A stretch of DNA of 64,000 bases from Saccharospirillum sp. (lineage in GTDB: Bacteria; Pseudomonadota; Gammaproteobacteria; Pseudomonadales; Natronospirillaceae), in contig NZ_JBDWXV010000003.1 in NCBI RefSeq assembly GCF_039982735.1, positions 76,898 to 140,897 on the forward strand, read 5' to 3'. The notes beneath the pieces were generated by a model that was not told where the DNA came from, searched no databases, and saw nothing but the letters and a program-made list of their open reading frames with translations. Made by a program: the position numbers and the translations under genes. Of this stretch, positions 47,548-54,897 are shown piece after piece (position 1 is the stretch's first letter; every line of letters begins with the position of its first letter).

Positions 47548-48780
47548 CTAGTTCACCTGCCCTCCTTCGGTTCTGATCCGTATTTCCCGGGTCAGGGTTT
47601 TATGCACCGGGCAGCGATCGGCGATTTCCAGAAAACGTTGCTGTTCGGCCTCGGTCAGGTTGCCCTGGTAGCTTATGTGGCGCTCCAGTTGTTCGATCTG
47701 TCCGTTCTTCGACTCGCACTCCTGGCAGTCTTCGGCGTGAATCCTCGAATGCCGCAGCCGCACCCGAATGTCGCTGACAGCCAACGATTTGTGATTGGCG
47801 TACATGCGCAAGGTCATTGAGGTGCAGGCGCCAAGCGACATCAGCAACAGATCATAGGGGGTTGGGCCCTGGTCGGTGCCGCCATTGCTTTCAGGCTCAT
47901 CGGCCAGTACTTCATGTCGTGTTGTGTACAGGCCTCGCAAAAAGCGGGCGTCCTGTTCGGTTACGATGACCTCGTCTTCTGCGACCTTCGGCCGATCTGT
48001 CGGAGTGGCTTCATCGCCAAATTCCAGGTACCGGCTGGCCCAGGCCGCCAGTGTCGCCGCCACATAGTCAGCGTCTGCGCGCTTTGACAACAGGTGATCG
48101 GCGTTGTCGAGTGACACAAAACTCTTTGGATGCATGGCCGCCTGATAAAGTTCGGCGGCTTCACTGACGGGCACTACGGCATCGACCGGTGAATGGAAAA
48201 TCAGCAAGGGTTTGCGCAAGGTGGCAACCAGGTTGCGTGACGACCAGTCCTCCAGGTCTTCCAGTAATTGCGACCTGATGTTGAAGTGGCGACCGCCAAT
48301 ATCCACCTCGGCCTGGCCATCCCGGGTAATGTCGCAGTGCTGGTCGGCAAATAAATGCTGAACGTGCGAAGGCGTAGAAGGGGCGGCAATGGTCACCACT
48401 GCTTCTACCGATTCAAGCCGGGAGGCCGCGACCAGTGCAGCCGCGCCACCCAGGCTATGGCCAATCAGCAATTTGGGGGCCTGGTAGTGTTCAGTCAGAA
48501 ACTCAGCGGCATCAAGCAGATCTTCAACATTGGAACTGAAATTGGTGTTGCCGAAATCGCCGTCGCTGCCACCCAGGCCGGTAAAGTCGAAGCGAAATAC
48601 GGCGATGCCCTGCTCGGCCAACGCACTGGCAATGCGAGTCGCGGCGACCACGTCCTTGCCGCAGGTGAAACAATGGGCGAACAGGGCCATCACCCGAACA
48701 GGGCCGGCATCCGGTTGTTCCAGTGCACCGGTCAGGGTATGCCCCTCCCGGTTGGTAAACTCGATTTTACGGCGTGTCAT
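47548..48780 (-). CDS. bifunctional alpha/beta hydrolase-OsmC protein
   Basis: AHCFTCGK, GHSLGG, HSPVD, ADHLL; C-terminal OsmC domain with LGACTSMT and IADRCPVH. Start moved to the ATG at 48780. Confidence 0.92.
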   Translation of the reverse strand: MTRRKIEFTNREGHTLTGALEQPDAGPVRVMALFAHCFTCGKDVVAATRIASALAEQGIAVFRFDFTGLGGSDGDFGNTNFSSNVEDLLDAAEFLTEHYQAPKLLIGHSLGGAAALVAASRLESVEAVVTIAAPSTPSHVQHLFADQHCDITRDGQAEVDIGGRHFNIRSQLLEDLEDWSSRNLVATLRKPLLIFHSPVDAVVPVSEAAELYQAAMHPKSFVSLDNADHLLSKRADADYVAATLAAWASRYLEFGDEATPTDRPKVAEDEVIVTEQDARFLRGLYTTRHEVLADEPESNGGTDQGPTPYDLLLMSLGACTSMTLRMYANHKSLAVSDIRVRLRHSRIHAEDCQECESKNGQIEQLERHISYQGNLTEAEQQRFLEIADRCPVHKTLTREIRIRTEGGQVN

Positions 48781-48903
48781 GGTGGCTCCCGGAAACAGAT
48801 AACAGACCAGCACACTAGCACATTCGCCAGGGCCTAAGGGAAACCGCCCTCAACCGACCATCCTCTGGTAGGCTACTCCAAAATCTCTAACTGAGGACAA
48901 TCG

Positions 48904-50480: not shown

Positions 50481-50500
50481 CTATTATCAATTACTAATAT
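50481..50500. promoter_or_regulatory. 7-6-7 palindrome, site C (upstream of diguanylate cyclase)
   Basis: CTATTAT-CAATTA-CTAATAT, 12/14 match to ATATTAG-N6-CTAATAT. Confidence 0.55.
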
Positions 50501-50526
50501 GTTTGTCGGCTGTGGTAGTGCCCCTG

Positions 50527-52821
50527 ATGCAAAATTTTTATGTGCGAACGCTGCTGATCGCTGCCGCCCTTAGCCTGGGGTTGCTGTCGCTTCAGGCGCA
50601 GGCGTCAGGGCAACCGCTGGACGAAGGCTGGCAATACCGCTGGGGCGATTCCCCCTTCAACGCAGACGGCGTGCCAGCGTGGACAGACGACCCAGCCGAC
50701 AGCAGCGAGTGGCAGGCCATCGATTTTCCGTCCAACCCGCCCGATCGCGATGGCCAGACCAATGTGTGGTATCGGGTCACCCTGCCTGCGGATGAATGGC
50801 GGGACCCAATTCTCTATATTTACAGCGTTGATCTGATTACCGAGGTCTACCTCGAGGGTGAGCAGATCTACCATTATGGCGCCTTCGATGAACAGGGCCA
50901 GGGGTCTTTTGAAGGCTGGCCCTGGCATATGGTGCCTCTGCCGGAGGGGTATAGCGGCAAAACCCTGTATTTCAGAATCTTTTCGAGCTACAGCGACATC
51001 GGCCTCTGGGGCGAGGTGAGACTGAACAGTCGGCAGGATCAGATTCTCACCCTGCTGATCGATTCGGCGGATGCGCTAGCCGCCAGTGCCTTTTCCCTGA
51101 TCATAGCCGTGCTTGCCTTGTTTTTCGCCTTGATCGAAACCCAGCGTCGAACCTTTGTCAGCGTGGGCCTGTTTTCTCTGGCCTCGGCACTGATGGTCAC
51201 CGCCGAAAGTCCCGCCAGCTTGTTGCTGTTGTACCAGCCTATTGTCTGGGACTACGTCGCCGCGGGCGCTTACTTCACGTTGCCAGTGGCCATTGCTTTG
51301 CTGCTGGAACAATGGCTGCCGGAATCCCGAATCGGGCTGATTCGCAAACTGTGGCAAGGGCATGTGTTGTACGTGATTGGTGCCCTTGGCTTGTCGTTGC
51401 TCGGTGTCATTATTCTGCCCTCGGCGTTCTATGTATTTGACTATCTGCTGCTAGCGACACTGACCCTGCTGTTTGTATTAGTCGCACCTAACCTGCGCCG
51501 GGTAAGCCGGGAGCAACAGGCAGTCATCGCCACCTTCGCGCTCTACTCGGCCCTGCTGATTATCGATATGGCAGTCGCCCACGGCTTCTTGCCCTGGAAT
51601 CGAACCCCACTGAGCTGGGGCGGACTGGCGTTTTCTCTGGTCATCAGCCTGGTGTCGCTGCGCCAATATCACCAAACCCGCCAGGAACTGTACGCGCTCA
51701 ATCAACAATTGGAACTGAGAGTCGATGAACGCACCCGCAAGCTTGAAACGCTGGCTGACGAGGAGCGCTTGCGTACCCGAATTCTGTCTTATGAGCATGA
51801 AAAAACCCTCCTGCTCAATGACATGGTCACCCGCCTGCACGCCAGCCAATCACTGGAGCAGGGCTTTGACAACCTCGCCGCTGATCTGCCGGCTTACACT
51901 CGACCTCTGGTTGGCGCACTCTATCGTCGCCTTAACACCAAACCGGTATTCACGTTACTGTCGCAATGGGGCGAACACGGACTGGAGCTGCCTGAAACCT
52001 GGTCAGGAAGCGATTTCCCCGGCATATCAGCCTCTGCCTACCTGGACCCGATGAGCCAGGCACGGGTCGATCTTGACGGTTATCCATACTGGGTATTCCC
52101 CATTACTGTTGAAGATGTCGACCGGGGCTCTGATGTGCTGGGCCTGCTGATAATCGCCTTGCCTGAACTGGTCGCCGAAGGCGAACGTCGCAGCGGTCGC
52201 GGCCATTTGTTTCAATCTGTCCGCCAGGCAATGGACAAGGTAGGCGTGGTTTTGTCGAGCCTGATTCTGAGACAACGGCTGGAGACGCTATCGTATGAGG
52301 ACTCGCTCACCGGTCTGAAGAACCGGCGTTACTTTAACGAACTCTATGCCCGGGAGTCGGCCATTGCACTGCGTACCCAGGTGCCACTGAGTTTCATCAT
52401 GGTCGACCTCGACCACTTCAAACAGTTCAACGACCAATACGGGCACCAGGCCGGCGACGAAGCCCTGCGCCTGGTCGCTGATACCATGCGCATCCGGTTT
52501 CGTGAAACCGATGTGGTGTGCCGCTATGGTGGCGAAGAATTCATTGCCATTTTGCCCGGTGCCAGTTCGGCCGATGCCGAAGCCCTGGCCGGAGAAATTC
52601 GCATTGCCGTAAATCAGGTGCCCATCTTTCATGAAAACCGGAACCTGGGGCATCTGACGCTATCAGCCGGCATTGCAACCTGGCCCGAGCACTGCACCGA
52701 CCCGGACAAACTGCTGGTTCTGGCCGACAATGCCCTGTACCTCGCAAAGGATTCCGGTCGTAACCGGGTTTGCACCCCCGCCCGTCCGGCGCACAGCACT
52801 GCCCCCAGCCCCGCAAACTGA
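50527..52821 (+). CDS. membrane diguanylate cyclase (sugar-binding-like periplasmic domain, 7TM, GAF-like, GGDEF)
   Basis: Signal peptide, beta-sandwich (GWQYRWG, VWYRVTLP), about 7 TM helices, and RETD I-site before RYGGEEF. Start moved to the ATG at 50527. Confidence 0.9.
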   Translation: MQNFYVRTLLIAAALSLGLLSLQAQASGQPLDEGWQYRWGDSPFNADGVPAWTDDPADSSEWQAIDFPSNPPDRDGQTNVWYRVTLPADEWRDPILYIYSVDLITEVYLEGEQIYHYGAFDEQGQGSFEGWPWHMVPLPEGYSGKTLYFRIFSSYSDIGLWGEVRLNSRQDQILTLLIDSADALAASAFSLIIAVLALFFALIETQRRTFVSVGLFSLASALMVTAESPASLLLLYQPIVWDYVAAGAYFTLPVAIALLLEQWLPESRIGLIRKLWQGHVLYVIGALGLSLLGVIILPSAFYVFDYLLLATLTLLFVLVAPNLRRVSREQQAVIATFALYSALLIIDMAVAHGFLPWNRTPLSWGGLAFSLVISLVSLRQYHQTRQELYALNQQLELRVDERTRKLETLADEERLRTRILSYEHEKTLLLNDMVTRLHASQSLEQGFDNLAADLPAYTRPLVGALYRRLNTKPVFTLLSQWGEHGLELPETWSGSDFPGISASAYLDPMSQARVDLDGYPYWVFPITVEDVDRGSDVLGLLIIALPELVAEGERRSGRGHLFQSVRQAMDKVGVVLSSLILRQRLETLSYEDSLTGLKNRRYFNELYARESAIALRTQVPLSFIMVDLDHFKQFNDQYGHQAGDEALRLVADTMRIRFRETDVVCRYGGEEFIAILPGASSADAEALAGEIRIAVNQVPIFHENRNLGHLTLSAGIATWPEHCTDPDKLLVLADNALYLAKDSGRNRVCTPARPAHSTAPSPAN

Positions 52822-52872
52822 GCCTTTGAATCCCGCAGTTGACGTTTTAACCAAGGCGCCCTATTCTTCTTT

Positions 52873-52892
52873 ATATTAGTTTTTACTTATTT
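52873..52892. promoter_or_regulatory. 7-6-7 palindrome, site B (upstream of sqr)
   Basis: ATATTAG-TTTTTA-CTTATTT, 12/14 match. Confidence 0.55.
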
Positions 52893-52938
52893 AATGAGAT
52901 GCAACTGTGATGACTCGCCCATACACAAGGAGAACAGG

Positions 52939-54141
52939 ATGAAGACCTACCAGATACTGATCGCCGGTGGAGGGGCTGCCGGCCTGTCCGTCGCGGCGTC
53001 GCTGAAGCGACGCGATGCGTCACTGACCATTGCGATAATCGAACCGTCTGAGACCCACGTTTACCAGCCTGGTCAGACGTTGGTTGGGCGAGGCGTTATG
53101 TCGCTGGAGGAACTGAAAAGACCGACTCAGTCGTTTATTCCAGCGGGTGTCGACTGGATCAAAGCCTCGGTCACCGCATTCAACCCTGAAGCCAGCGAAA
53201 TCGATCTCGACAACGGCACTACCCTGGCCTACGAACACCTGGTCGTCAGCCTGGGCCTGAAACTGAACCTCGAGGGCATTGAAGGCCTGGCGGATACACT
53301 GGGCCAGAATGGGGTGACGTCAAATTACGTCACCGAGTTATCGGCCTATACCTGGGATCAGGTGCAACAACTGAAGACGGGCCGGGCTCTGTTCACCCAG
53401 CCACCCATGCCGATCAAATGTGCCGGGGCGCCGCAAAAAGCGATGTACCTCAGTTGCGATTACTGGCTAAAGGAAAATCGCTTGTCTGGCGTTGATGTCG
53501 AGTTTCACAATGCTGGAGCGGTCATGTTCGGCGTCGCCGAGTTTGTGCCGGTACTCGAAAGCTATGTTAAAAAGTACGGCGTAAAAACCTGCTTCAGCAG
53601 CACGCTAGTCAAAGTGGATGGCCCTGCCAGGAAAGCCTGGTTCAAACAGGGCGATGGCAGCGTTGAAGAAACCACGTTTGACCTGCTGCATGTAACACCG
53701 CCGCAATGTGCGCCGGATGTAGTCGCCTCCAGCGCACTGGCCAACGAAGCTGGCTGGGTCGATGTCGATCAGACAACACTGCAACACACTCGATTTACCA
53801 ATGTCTTTTCGCTTGGTGACGTGTGCTCAGCACCCAATGCGAAAACGGCGGCCGCAGTACGCAAACAGGTTCCGATTGTCGCCGACAATCTGTTAGCTGC
53901 CAGAAAGCAGGAGGCAATGCCTGGCGTTTACGATGGGTACGGCGCCTGCCCACTGACCGTGGAAGTTGGGAAAGTCGTGCTCGCTGAGTTTGGTTACGGT
54001 GGCAGCCTAAAACCCAGCTTTCCACTGGACCCAAGAGTACCGCGCAGCCTCTACTGGTGGATGAAAACCACGGGTTTTCCTTGGGTTTACTGGAACCTGA
54101 TGATGCGTGGCAGAGAATGGCTGGTGAAAACCAACCCTTAA
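52939..54141 (+). CDS. sqr: sulfide:quinone oxidoreductase (type II-like)
   Basis: GGGAAG FAD motif, YQPGQTLVG, IKCAGAPQK and YGACPL redox Cys motifs, FSLGD, AKTAAA. Start at the ATG at 52939. Confidence 0.85.
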   Translation: MKTYQILIAGGGAAGLSVAASLKRRDASLTIAIIEPSETHVYQPGQTLVGRGVMSLEELKRPTQSFIPAGVDWIKASVTAFNPEASEIDLDNGTTLAYEHLVVSLGLKLNLEGIEGLADTLGQNGVTSNYVTELSAYTWDQVQQLKTGRALFTQPPMPIKCAGAPQKAMYLSCDYWLKENRLSGVDVEFHNAGAVMFGVAEFVPVLESYVKKYGVKTCFSSTLVKVDGPARKAWFKQGDGSVEETTFDLLHVTPPQCAPDVVASSALANEAGWVDVDQTTLQHTRFTNVFSLGDVCSAPNAKTAAAVRKQVPIVADNLLAARKQEAMPGVYDGYGACPLTVEVGKVVLAEFGYGGSLKPSFPLDPRVPRSLYWWMKTTGFPWVYWNLMMRGREWLVKTNP

Positions 54142-54143
54142 TT

Positions 54144-54173
54144 AAAAAACCCCGGTTAACCGGGGTTTTTTTT
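54144..54173. terminator. bidirectional intrinsic terminator
   Basis: AAAAAACCCCGG-TTAA-CCGGGGTTTTTTT between the convergent sqr and peroxiredoxin genes. Confidence 0.9.
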
Positions 54174-54186
54174 GCCTGATTGGAAA

Positions 54187-54813
54187 TCAGACTTTGGTGG
54201 TGCGCAAGTAGGGACGAATTTCGTTCCAGCCTTGTGGGAAGATGTCTTTGGCTTCCTCGTTGCTGATCGACGGCGGAATAATAACGTCCTCACCCGGACG
54301 CCAGTCGGCCGGCGTTGCAACCCGCTTGGCATCGCCCAACTGCAGGGCATCGATAACACGCAAAATTTCATCGAAGTTACGACCCACCGACATCGGGTAG
54401 GTCAGCGTCAGCCGAATCTTTTTATTCGGGTCGACAATGAAGACAGAGCGAACGGCCGCTGTCTGGCTTTCGCCGGGGTGAATCATATCGTACTGCTTGG
54501 CAATCGACAGGTCTGCATCAGCGACGATCGGAAAGTTCAGGGTAGTGTTCTGAGTGTCGTTGACGTCGAAGATCCACTTGTTGTGCTCTTCAACGGTATC
54601 AGTCGACAGCCCCAACGGCTTGACGTTGCGCTTGGCAAATTCGTCAGACAGCTGCGCCGTGCGTCCCATCTCGGTGGTGCACACGGGCGTAAAGTCAGCG
54701 GGGTGGCTGAAGAAGAAGGCCCAGGAATCGCCCAGCCACTCGTGGAAGGTGATCTTTCCCTGAGTGGTCTCAACGGTAAAATCGGGTGCGGTATCGCCTA
54801 AACGTAGTGTCAT
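54187..54813 (-). CDS. 1-Cys peroxiredoxin (Prx6/LsfA-like)
   Basis: SHPADFTPVCTTE, VRSVFIVDP, YPMSVGRNFDEILR, ATPADW. Start moved to the ATG at 54813. Confidence 0.93.
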   Translation of the reverse strand: MTLRLGDTAPDFTVETTQGKITFHEWLGDSWAFFFSHPADFTPVCTTEMGRTAQLSDEFAKRNVKPLGLSTDTVEEHNKWIFDVNDTQNTTLNFPIVADADLSIAKQYDMIHPGESQTAAVRSVFIVDPNKKIRLTLTYPMSVGRNFDEILRVIDALQLGDAKRVATPADWRPGEDVIIPPSISNEEAKDIFPQGWNEIRPYLRTTKV

Positions 54814-54877
54814 CGTCTTGCTCCTGTTTACAGTGAGAACATGAAAGCACGGTGATGTGCCATCCTTATAACTCATT

Positions 54878-54897
54878 ATATTAGGTTTATCTAATAT
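54878..54897. promoter_or_regulatory. 7-6-7 palindrome, site A (upstream of peroxiredoxin)
   Basis: Perfect ATATTAG-GTTTAT-CTAATAT. Confidence 0.65.

Follow-up and report, generated by a model that had tools for sequence, protein, structure and literature searches.

The closest described relatives of the system analyzed here are ArsR-family proteins that sense persulfides. SqrR of Rhodobacter capsulatus is a dimeric repressor with two sensing cysteines that acts on sqr and rhodanese genes through the box ATTC-N8-GAAT (bioRxiv 10.64898/2026.05.15.721447). BigR (Xylella/Agrobacterium, Acinetobacter) and YgaV (E. coli), which belong to the same ArsR cluster, act on blh/PDO (persulfide dioxygenase), DUF442, YeeE, and rhodanese (ygaP) genes; YgaV binds the ygaV promoter, and its residues C31 and C98 form a tetrasulfide upon sulfide treatment (PMC9774250). 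HlyU reacts only with persulfides and then releases its DNA (PMC10509353), and is stated by its authors to have no strict consensus site (PMC4330345). A link from such sensors to cyclic di-GMP (c-di-GMP) and biofilm is already known in kind: deletion of sqrR in R. capsulatus lowers c-di-GMP and biofilm, with no direct diguanylate cyclase (DGC) target found (PMC9143464), and BigR of A. baumannii affects pilus and biofilm genes (PMC7315123). Here we describe the palindrome ATATTAG-N6-CTAATAT in a 64-kb stretch of a Saccharospirillum sp. genome (the window, G000:C3:76898-140897, in a genome of 4.7 Mb and 56% GC labelled G000), where it precedes genes for a 1-Cys peroxiredoxin (Prx), a type II sulfide:quinone oxidoreductase (SQR, gene sqr), and a membrane DGC. 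With a probability that we put at roughly 85%, the palindrome serves as the operator for a dimeric ArsR repressor that senses persulfides, belongs to the HlyU/BigR/SqrR/YgaV group, and is encoded on another contig of the same genome (the C11 protein).

At up to two mismatches, the palindrome has exactly three matches in the window, all in intergenic spacers, and none in 100 dinucleotide-preserving shuffles of the window. The sequence-only reading of this stretch had described a perfect copy at Prx and copies with 12/14 matching positions at sqr and the DGC, all in spacers and with no other copy in the window, and the mismatch scan agrees on each point. The perfect copy is located in the Prx promoter at 54878-54897 and the sqr copy, ATATTAG-N6-CTTATTT, at 52873-52892, its two mismatches falling in the proximal arm (5/7 positions) while the distal arm is perfect. 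The third, CTATTAT-N6-CTAATAT at 50481-50500, also has two mismatches and is treated here as a candidate weak operator in the DGC promoter. With the start codons of the three genes reset by reading the sequence, the distance from the end of the site to the ATG is 65 nt for Prx, 47 nt for sqr, and 27 nt for the DGC.

Across the whole genome there are 13 sites at up to two mismatches, all outside crude gene calls. This count is unremarkable by itself, since 60 palindromes with permuted arms averaged 6.9 matches at the same threshold and reached up to 28. At up to one mismatch, the real motif has three sites against an average of 0.4 and at most 2 for the permuted palindromes, and it is only at this stricter threshold that it stands out. 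The significance of the motif lies instead in where the sites are located and in their conservation. Of the two genomic sites with one mismatch, one lies in front of the gene for a 117-aa rhodanese and the other in front of a DUF2798 membrane protein gene, and four sites with two mismatches precede sqr, DUF442 (BLH_phosphatase), PDO-rhodanese fusion, and MFS transporter genes.

The association of the motif with a regulator family was established outside the genus. Homologues were searched in one genome per species, which gave 584 relatives, and the best 80 loci of the 584 (479 kb, from alpha- and gammaproteobacteria and one Verrucomicrobium) were analyzed; regulator homologues were gathered by a pattern for the recognition helix, SQ[SP]A[LM]SQHL, that is present in the C11 protein. 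In these best 80 loci, the motif occurs at up to two mismatches in 37 sites, versus 0 for a reversed control, and most of the sites are located either close behind the regulator gene or ahead of it by no more than ~700 nt. This co-occurrence ties the motif to this family of regulators. The same comparison gives Saccharospirillum (67% identity) as the nearest relative of the organism that bears a name. In other families of the order, the regulator homologues carry the motif in their own promoters, beside YgaP-like rhodanese or DUF2892 genes, and BigR-like genes of Lysobacterales are preceded, within about 90-700 nt, by pairs of motifs starting 16 nt apart.

A symmetric scoring matrix was built from the 37 foreign sites; as these had been selected for resembling the consensus, the matrix is independent in its position weights only. 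Applied to the host genome, it ranks the Prx operator first (score 28.4) and the sqr operator second (27.7), followed by the sites of the 117-aa rhodanese (26.6, rank 3), an AraC-type gene (25.3, rank 4), DUF2798 (21.0, rank 5), DUF442 (19.6, rank 6), and the PDO-rhodanese fusion (19.5, rank 7), and by a site between a SulP gene and a pair of genes for a metallo-beta-lactamase-fold (MBL) protein and a YeeE-type protein (19.1, rank 8). The sites of the MFS gene (17.9) and of a second SulP gene (17.3) stand lower in the list, and the DGC site of the window is found at rank 30 (13.1). Operators of characterized proteins also fit the matrix. The footprinted hlyA operator of V. cholerae, AAATTAA-N6-CTAAATT (sequence from PMC4330345), scores 15.0 in the same register, and the E. 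coli ygaV promoter contains two sites (13.1 and 21.9) that are 16 nt apart, as in the BigR-like genes of Lysobacterales, and end 4 nt before the ygaV start codon (L091:2172-2207). The SqrR operator, on the other hand, scores 0.9, which indicates that the specificities of SqrR and of the box described here are distinct, even though ATTC-N8-GAAT and the corresponding ATTA-N8-TAAT share a 16-bp core of identical geometry and differ by a single base per half-site (C/G in SqrR, A/T here).

Conservation in relatives, one of the points on which the sequence-only reading had staked its proposal, was followed in 13 genomes of the genus, that is, G000 and 12 sisters. The exact 12-base core TATTAG-N6-CTAATA is present in 10 of the 12 sister genomes with one to three copies each, and the same core with its letters reversed is absent from the genus. 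It precedes the Prx orthologue in seven sister genomes, sqr in three, the rhodanese gene in three, and DUF2798 in two, and it is also found in front of PDO-rhodanese fusion, DUF442, TsoY-family, and thioredoxin genes; five further genomes of the genus have a near-exact core in the sqr promoter. In terms of the matrix, the site upstream of sqr scores 21-28 in all eight genus genomes that have sqr, three of which carry it at a distance of at least 77 kb from Prx, and the site upstream of Prx scores 23-32 in the orthologous promoters of seven genus genomes. The clade of G001 and G012 is informative in this respect: Prx and sqr are unlinked there (77 kb apart in G001) and both retain the site, so the conservation does not follow from synteny.

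The domain search of the 64 kb detected no ArsR-family gene, in line with the proposal of the sequence-only reading that sqr and Prx are controlled through an AT-rich inverted repeat by a trans-encoded regulator of the SqrR/BigR/HlyU type. The comparative evidence favors that proposal, and a candidate for the regulator is now at hand in a 103-aa ArsR protein encoded at G000 C11:193474-193785. It matches PF01022 above the cut-off (43.4 bits, at G000 C11:193564-193692) and the NCBIfam model HTH_metalloreg with 80.7 bits (cut-off 55). Among PDB sequences, the eight best matches comprise three of HlyU, two of SqrR, and those of NolR, BigR, and YgaV; the closest is HlyU of V. cholerae (E 4e-30), followed by HlyU of V. 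vulnificus (HlyU range 4e-30 to 3e-28, residues 9-103), SqrR (3e-20), BigR (2e-17), and YgaV (1e-13). The recognition helix, LSQSALSQHLA-LRRD-LV, is nearly identical to that of HlyU. Two cysteines are invariant among 18 aligned homologues: C36, which belongs to helix alpha2 (LxC), and C102, close to the end of the chain (YC). They correspond to C31 and C98 of YgaV; the same pair is found in HlyU and BigR. The gene is present as a single copy in all 13 genus genomes. A complex predicted for the dimer and the 30-bp Prx operator reached a score of 0.78, versus 0.75 with shuffled DNA, and carries no weight in the assignment.

The three genes behind the sites in the window are well defined. Prx (54187-54813, minus strand) encodes a 208-aa peroxiredoxin of the Prx6/LsfA type with AhpC-TSA and 1-cysPrx_C domains (Pfam), which also matches NCBIfam PRK13189 with 230 bits (cut-off 211). 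Its translation holds a single cysteine, in PVCTTE, with no resolving cysteine, and the ATG at 54813 has an AGGAG ribosome-binding site in front. The sqr gene (52939-54141, plus strand), whose ATG at 52939 follows AAGGAG, encodes a 400-aa protein with a Pyr_redox_2 domain and full-length similarity to SQOR (E 1.7e-97 to the human mitochondrial enzyme, residues 1-391). Two cysteines can be read in the motifs KCAGAPQK and GACPL, which we take to be the counterparts of the catalytic pair of human SQOR. The DGC (50527-52821, plus strand, 764 aa) is composed of a signal peptide, a putative periplasmic domain, six to seven transmembrane segments (six hydrophobic segments above threshold in the hydropathy profile, a seventh likely), a linker, and a GGDEF domain (161 bits in Pfam; TIGR00254 also matched). 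The GGDEF domain has an intact GGEEF signature at residue 668 and an I-site, RETD (RxxD), five residues upstream. Residues 1-600 gave no Pfam match even at E 0.01 when a domain of the 7TMR-DISM type was sought.

Between the convergent sqr and Prx genes, a bidirectional terminator can be read at 54144-54173, made up of an A-run, the hairpin CCCCGGTTAACCGGGG, and a T-run. The promoter and terminator scan tool did not report it, probably because the palindrome leaves no loop. Further upstream, 1.7 kb from the DGC, an alpha/beta hydrolase fused to a C-terminal OsmC-like peroxidase domain is encoded at 47548-48813 on the minus strand; this gene has no motif site.

The position of the sites relative to the promoters is of the kind expected for a repressor. 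A putative −10 hexamer TATAAT of the Prx promoter is read at 54875-54880 (minus strand), overlapping the promoter-proximal arm of the palindrome by 3 nt, and TATAAT, TATATT, or TATAGT is found at the equivalent place in seven of seven orthologous Prx promoters; sqr has TTTAAT at the corresponding position, followed by the same GAG. The scan tool predicts the Prx promoter elsewhere (54942-54913), and its promoters would set the operators at about +1 to +28. Under either prediction the operators would lie at or just past the core promoter. Three RNA-seq runs with raw reads contained none from this organism, and one run of contigs belongs to a related strain and carries no information on transcription. 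Such an overlap with the core promoter of sulfur-detoxification genes corresponds to the repressor layout of BigR, SqrR, and YgaV, and is unlike that of HlyU. A reading of the sites as the T-N11-A motif of a LysR-type regulator was dropped, as they are too near the start codons for a recognition site at −65 and the motif co-occurs with ArsR genes.

By analogy with the characterized members of the family, from which we infer binding, repression, the response to persulfide, and the positions of the promoters, the reduced repressor dimer would occupy the operator over the −10 and start region and block RNA polymerase. Oxidation of sulfide to persulfide or polysulfide would then join C36 and C102 by a polysulfide link, and the bridged repressor would leave the DNA, allowing the target genes to be expressed.

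We firmly predict that the targets in the window include Prx, which has the strongest site, and the type II SQR, and those elsewhere the 117-aa rhodanese, the PDO-rhodanese fusion, the DUF442 protein, and the DUF2798 membrane protein; the SulP, MFS, and MBL-YeeE genes are probably targets as well. The PDO, DUF442, YeeE, and rhodanese genes among them are also targets of BigR and YgaV. No report of a 1-Cys peroxiredoxin as the top target of a BigR/YgaV-type regulator was found in the literature searched. Work cited in PMC7315123 indicates that 1-Cys peroxiredoxins can make persulfides from H2S, which provides a rationale for the presence of Prx in the regulon. We also noticed that two sites at the SulP locus, C3:187604 (19.1) and C3:188688 (13.5) (L172), flank the MBL-fold gene between the SulP gene and a YeeE/YedE-type sulfur transport gene, an arrangement that recalls the BigR-controlled yeeE-yedE-pdo2 operon of Acinetobacter.

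The observations that weigh against our interpretation concern the DGC and the identity of the regulator. At the DGC, the proximal arm is perfect, but the distal arm reads much like a −10 box (TATTAT), being without A1 and G7, each of which is 91% conserved in the matrix. The scores of the site across the orthologues are 13.1, 11.1, 9.9, 7.5, <7, <7, and 12.7, compared with 21-32 at the sqr and Prx sites, and the loss of score in the more distant orthologues speaks against control of the DGC. In addition, HlyU half-sites alone are not bound in electrophoretic mobility shift assays (PMC4330345), and in the other clade of the genus, where sqr is preceded by an unrelated PAS-GGDEF gene, this gene lacks a site. 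About seven sites per genome at up to two mismatches are expected in any case for palindromes of such composition. All of this would fit an explanation in which the Prx and sqr sites are true operators and the DGC element is only a promoter, consisting of a −10 box TATWAT and a conserved start region that reads CTAATRT, so that the three-gene regulon would shrink to two genes plus a neighbor. The distal block is indeed a near-perfect −10 box, with TATAAT in three orthologues, and we regard this explanation as having a chance only just short of even.

It is challenged by the way in which the DGC element is conserved. The blocks CTATWAT and CTAATRT persist in seven orthologous DGC promoters, separated by a spacer that is constant in length (6 nt) and variable in sequence, within flanks that cannot be aligned; the second block is an exact half-site of the regulon, and the first keeps four to five of the seven arm positions in these seven genomes. 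The combined pattern TATWAT-N6-CTAATRY occurs only five times in the 4.7-Mb genome (reversed control, one). Four of the five copies face the next gene on the same strand at a distance of 2-39 nt, namely the PDO-rhodanese fusion, DUF442, SulP, and the DGC of the window, so that three of them precede sulfur genes, and the fifth precedes, at a distance of 169 nt, a PAS-PAS-GGDEF gene that is encoded on the opposite strand. A low matrix score is also not decisive, given that the footprinted hlyA operator does not exceed 15.0. Some promoters thus form a class of their own, with a distal arm that also serves as the −10 box, and the DGC promoter belongs to it by sequence; a hybrid element of this type, with a −10-like distal arm and a consensus proximal arm, may give weak repression.

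The PAS-PAS-GGDEF gene (G000 C3:281920-283584, L009:3189-4856) is located outside the window and encodes a second DGC of 555 aa. Its upstream site, ATATTAG-N6-ATTATAT (G000 C3:281732-281751, L009:3001-3020), scores 18.9 (rank 9) and is situated in an AT-rich stretch that follows a tRNA-like region. In G003, the gene likewise has an upstream site (16.7), as does a homologue of 51% identity in G011, where the site (16.5) lies in sequence that cannot be aligned; no site was found in the upstream region in G010.

For the DGC of the window, we consider the odds of its being a direct target of the persulfide sensor to be evenly balanced, and for at least one DGC being directly controlled by the sensor somewhat better than even. 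The sequence-only reading had linked SQR, Prx, and c-di-GMP through one palindrome: its sqr and Prx parts hold, with conserved and high-scoring sites, while the c-di-GMP part is plausible only. More tentatively, and with odds somewhat on the lower side, the full scheme would have the sensor directly repress DGC genes through operators that double as −10 boxes, such that persulfide stress raises c-di-GMP at the level of transcription, with Prx as the highest-scoring target.

Two other observations touch on c-di-GMP genes. The rank-4 site (score 25.3; G000 C25:114812-114831, L174) lies 34 nt upstream of the AraC-type gene and 50 nt past the stop codon of a PAS-GGDEF-EAL gene, which is the third c-di-GMP gene adjoining a site. 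The unrelated PAS-GGDEF genes of the other clade, about 320 aa in length and without a site of their own, are found just upstream of sqr at L043:455-1420 (G001), L048:1598-2566 (G012), and L038:424-1386 (G007). The presence of two different GGDEF genes beside sqr in two clades may be a coincidence or may reflect a functional pairing. An ancestral DGC-sqr pair was rejected, since the GGDEF gene upstream of sqr in one clade is no relative of that in the other: their identity of 31% is confined to the GGDEF domain, and they are not mutual best hits.

With regard to the regulator, the assignment to the C11 protein meets its main difficulty in the surroundings of its own gene. No site at up to three mismatches was found within 1.5 kb of the regulator gene in the 13 genus genomes and four genomes of the same family, and autoregulation in this genus was rejected on this ground. 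BigR and YgaV differ in that they are autoregulated and encoded beside their target operons, whereas the C11 regulator is unlinked to its predicted targets. The assignment consequently rests on homology and on the co-occurrence observed in other taxa. The C11 protein moreover reaches only 84.1 bits against the NCBIfam BigR equivalog NF040642 (cut-off 155); by these comparisons it is BigR-like, not a BigR equivalog, and nearer to HlyU than to BigR or SqrR. HlyU itself acts in Vibrio as an activator or anti-silencer of toxin genes from ~170 bp upstream of the promoter, which is a different mode of action from the one proposed here.

The same genome encodes a second ArsR protein, fused to a rhodanese domain (G000 C20:133945-134661), and at least seven proteins with an ArsR-type HTH in total, so the palindrome could in principle be read by the fusion, whose sulfur-transferase domain would suit sulfur sensing, or by a factor outside the ArsR family. 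We find this unlikely. The co-occurrence of motif and regulator rests on the helix pattern SQ[SP]A[LM]SQHL, which is absent from the fusion, and the repeat in front of the fusion gene is another one, the inverted repeat ATTC-N12-GAAT (upstream 133900-133945); the fit of the experimentally bound HlyU and YgaV operators to the matrix also argues for a regulator of the C11 type. The fusion protein, which is 238 aa long and bears the motif CRGPYC, may represent a second regulator that responds to sulfur separately. That the three matches are a mere chance likeness among AT-rich spacers, as the seven or so matches per genome of the permuted palindromes might suggest, can be set aside as extremely improbable in view of the empty window shuffles, the exact core in front of orthologous unlinked genes in the sister genomes, the 37 sites beside regulator homologues in distant taxa, and the top matrix matches, which are all sulfur genes.

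Several arrangements in the sister genomes deserve mention in their own right. In G008 (L059, G008:C298), the DGC and Prx are no longer separated by sqr, and only one arm (ACATTAG) is left of the Prx operator, with the regulator gene and the DGC intact in an assembly that is 90% complete; a decay of the DGC in this genome was considered and rejected, as the reported TAG is the natural stop codon. In G009 (L040:271-1491) and G013 (L032:1613-2806), exact-core sites are followed by a gene whose 400-aa product is a TsoY-family membrane protein (NCBIfam NF047644, 491 bits), a family name that NCBIfam pairs with an ArsR-type "TsoR." In G011 (L039:1410, 1500) and G006 (L047:1500, 1590), Prx is divergent from a gene for cytochrome bd-type oxidase subunit I, and the spacer between them contains two sites 90 nt apart. 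The bd oxidases are sulfide-resistant terminal oxidases. G000 is without this arrangement, and its only CydA homologue carries no site.

What is new in this analysis is the assignment of the regulon in the genus, the cross-taxon consensus for HlyU/BigR-type regulators, and the position of the 1-Cys peroxiredoxin as top target together with candidate DGC operators. An orphan HlyU-like regulator of a marine gammaproteobacterial genus thereby gains a predicted operator and regulon. The box ATATTAG-N6-CTAATAT appears to be common to HlyU, BigR, and YgaV-type proteins of many proteobacteria, differs from the SqrR box at one base in each half-site, and should be useful because HlyU was reported to lack a strict consensus. 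The 1-Cys peroxiredoxin is placed at the head of a persulfide regulon, which, if the scheme proposed above is true, points to a sulfide-dependent peroxidase or a persulfide-forming role for this enzyme. The two candidate DGC promoters offer a possible direct route from sulfide sensing to c-di-GMP, a connection that is so far indirect in Rhodobacter and Acinetobacter; if true, their operators would provide what had been looked for without success for SqrR in Rhodobacter, namely a direct DGC target.

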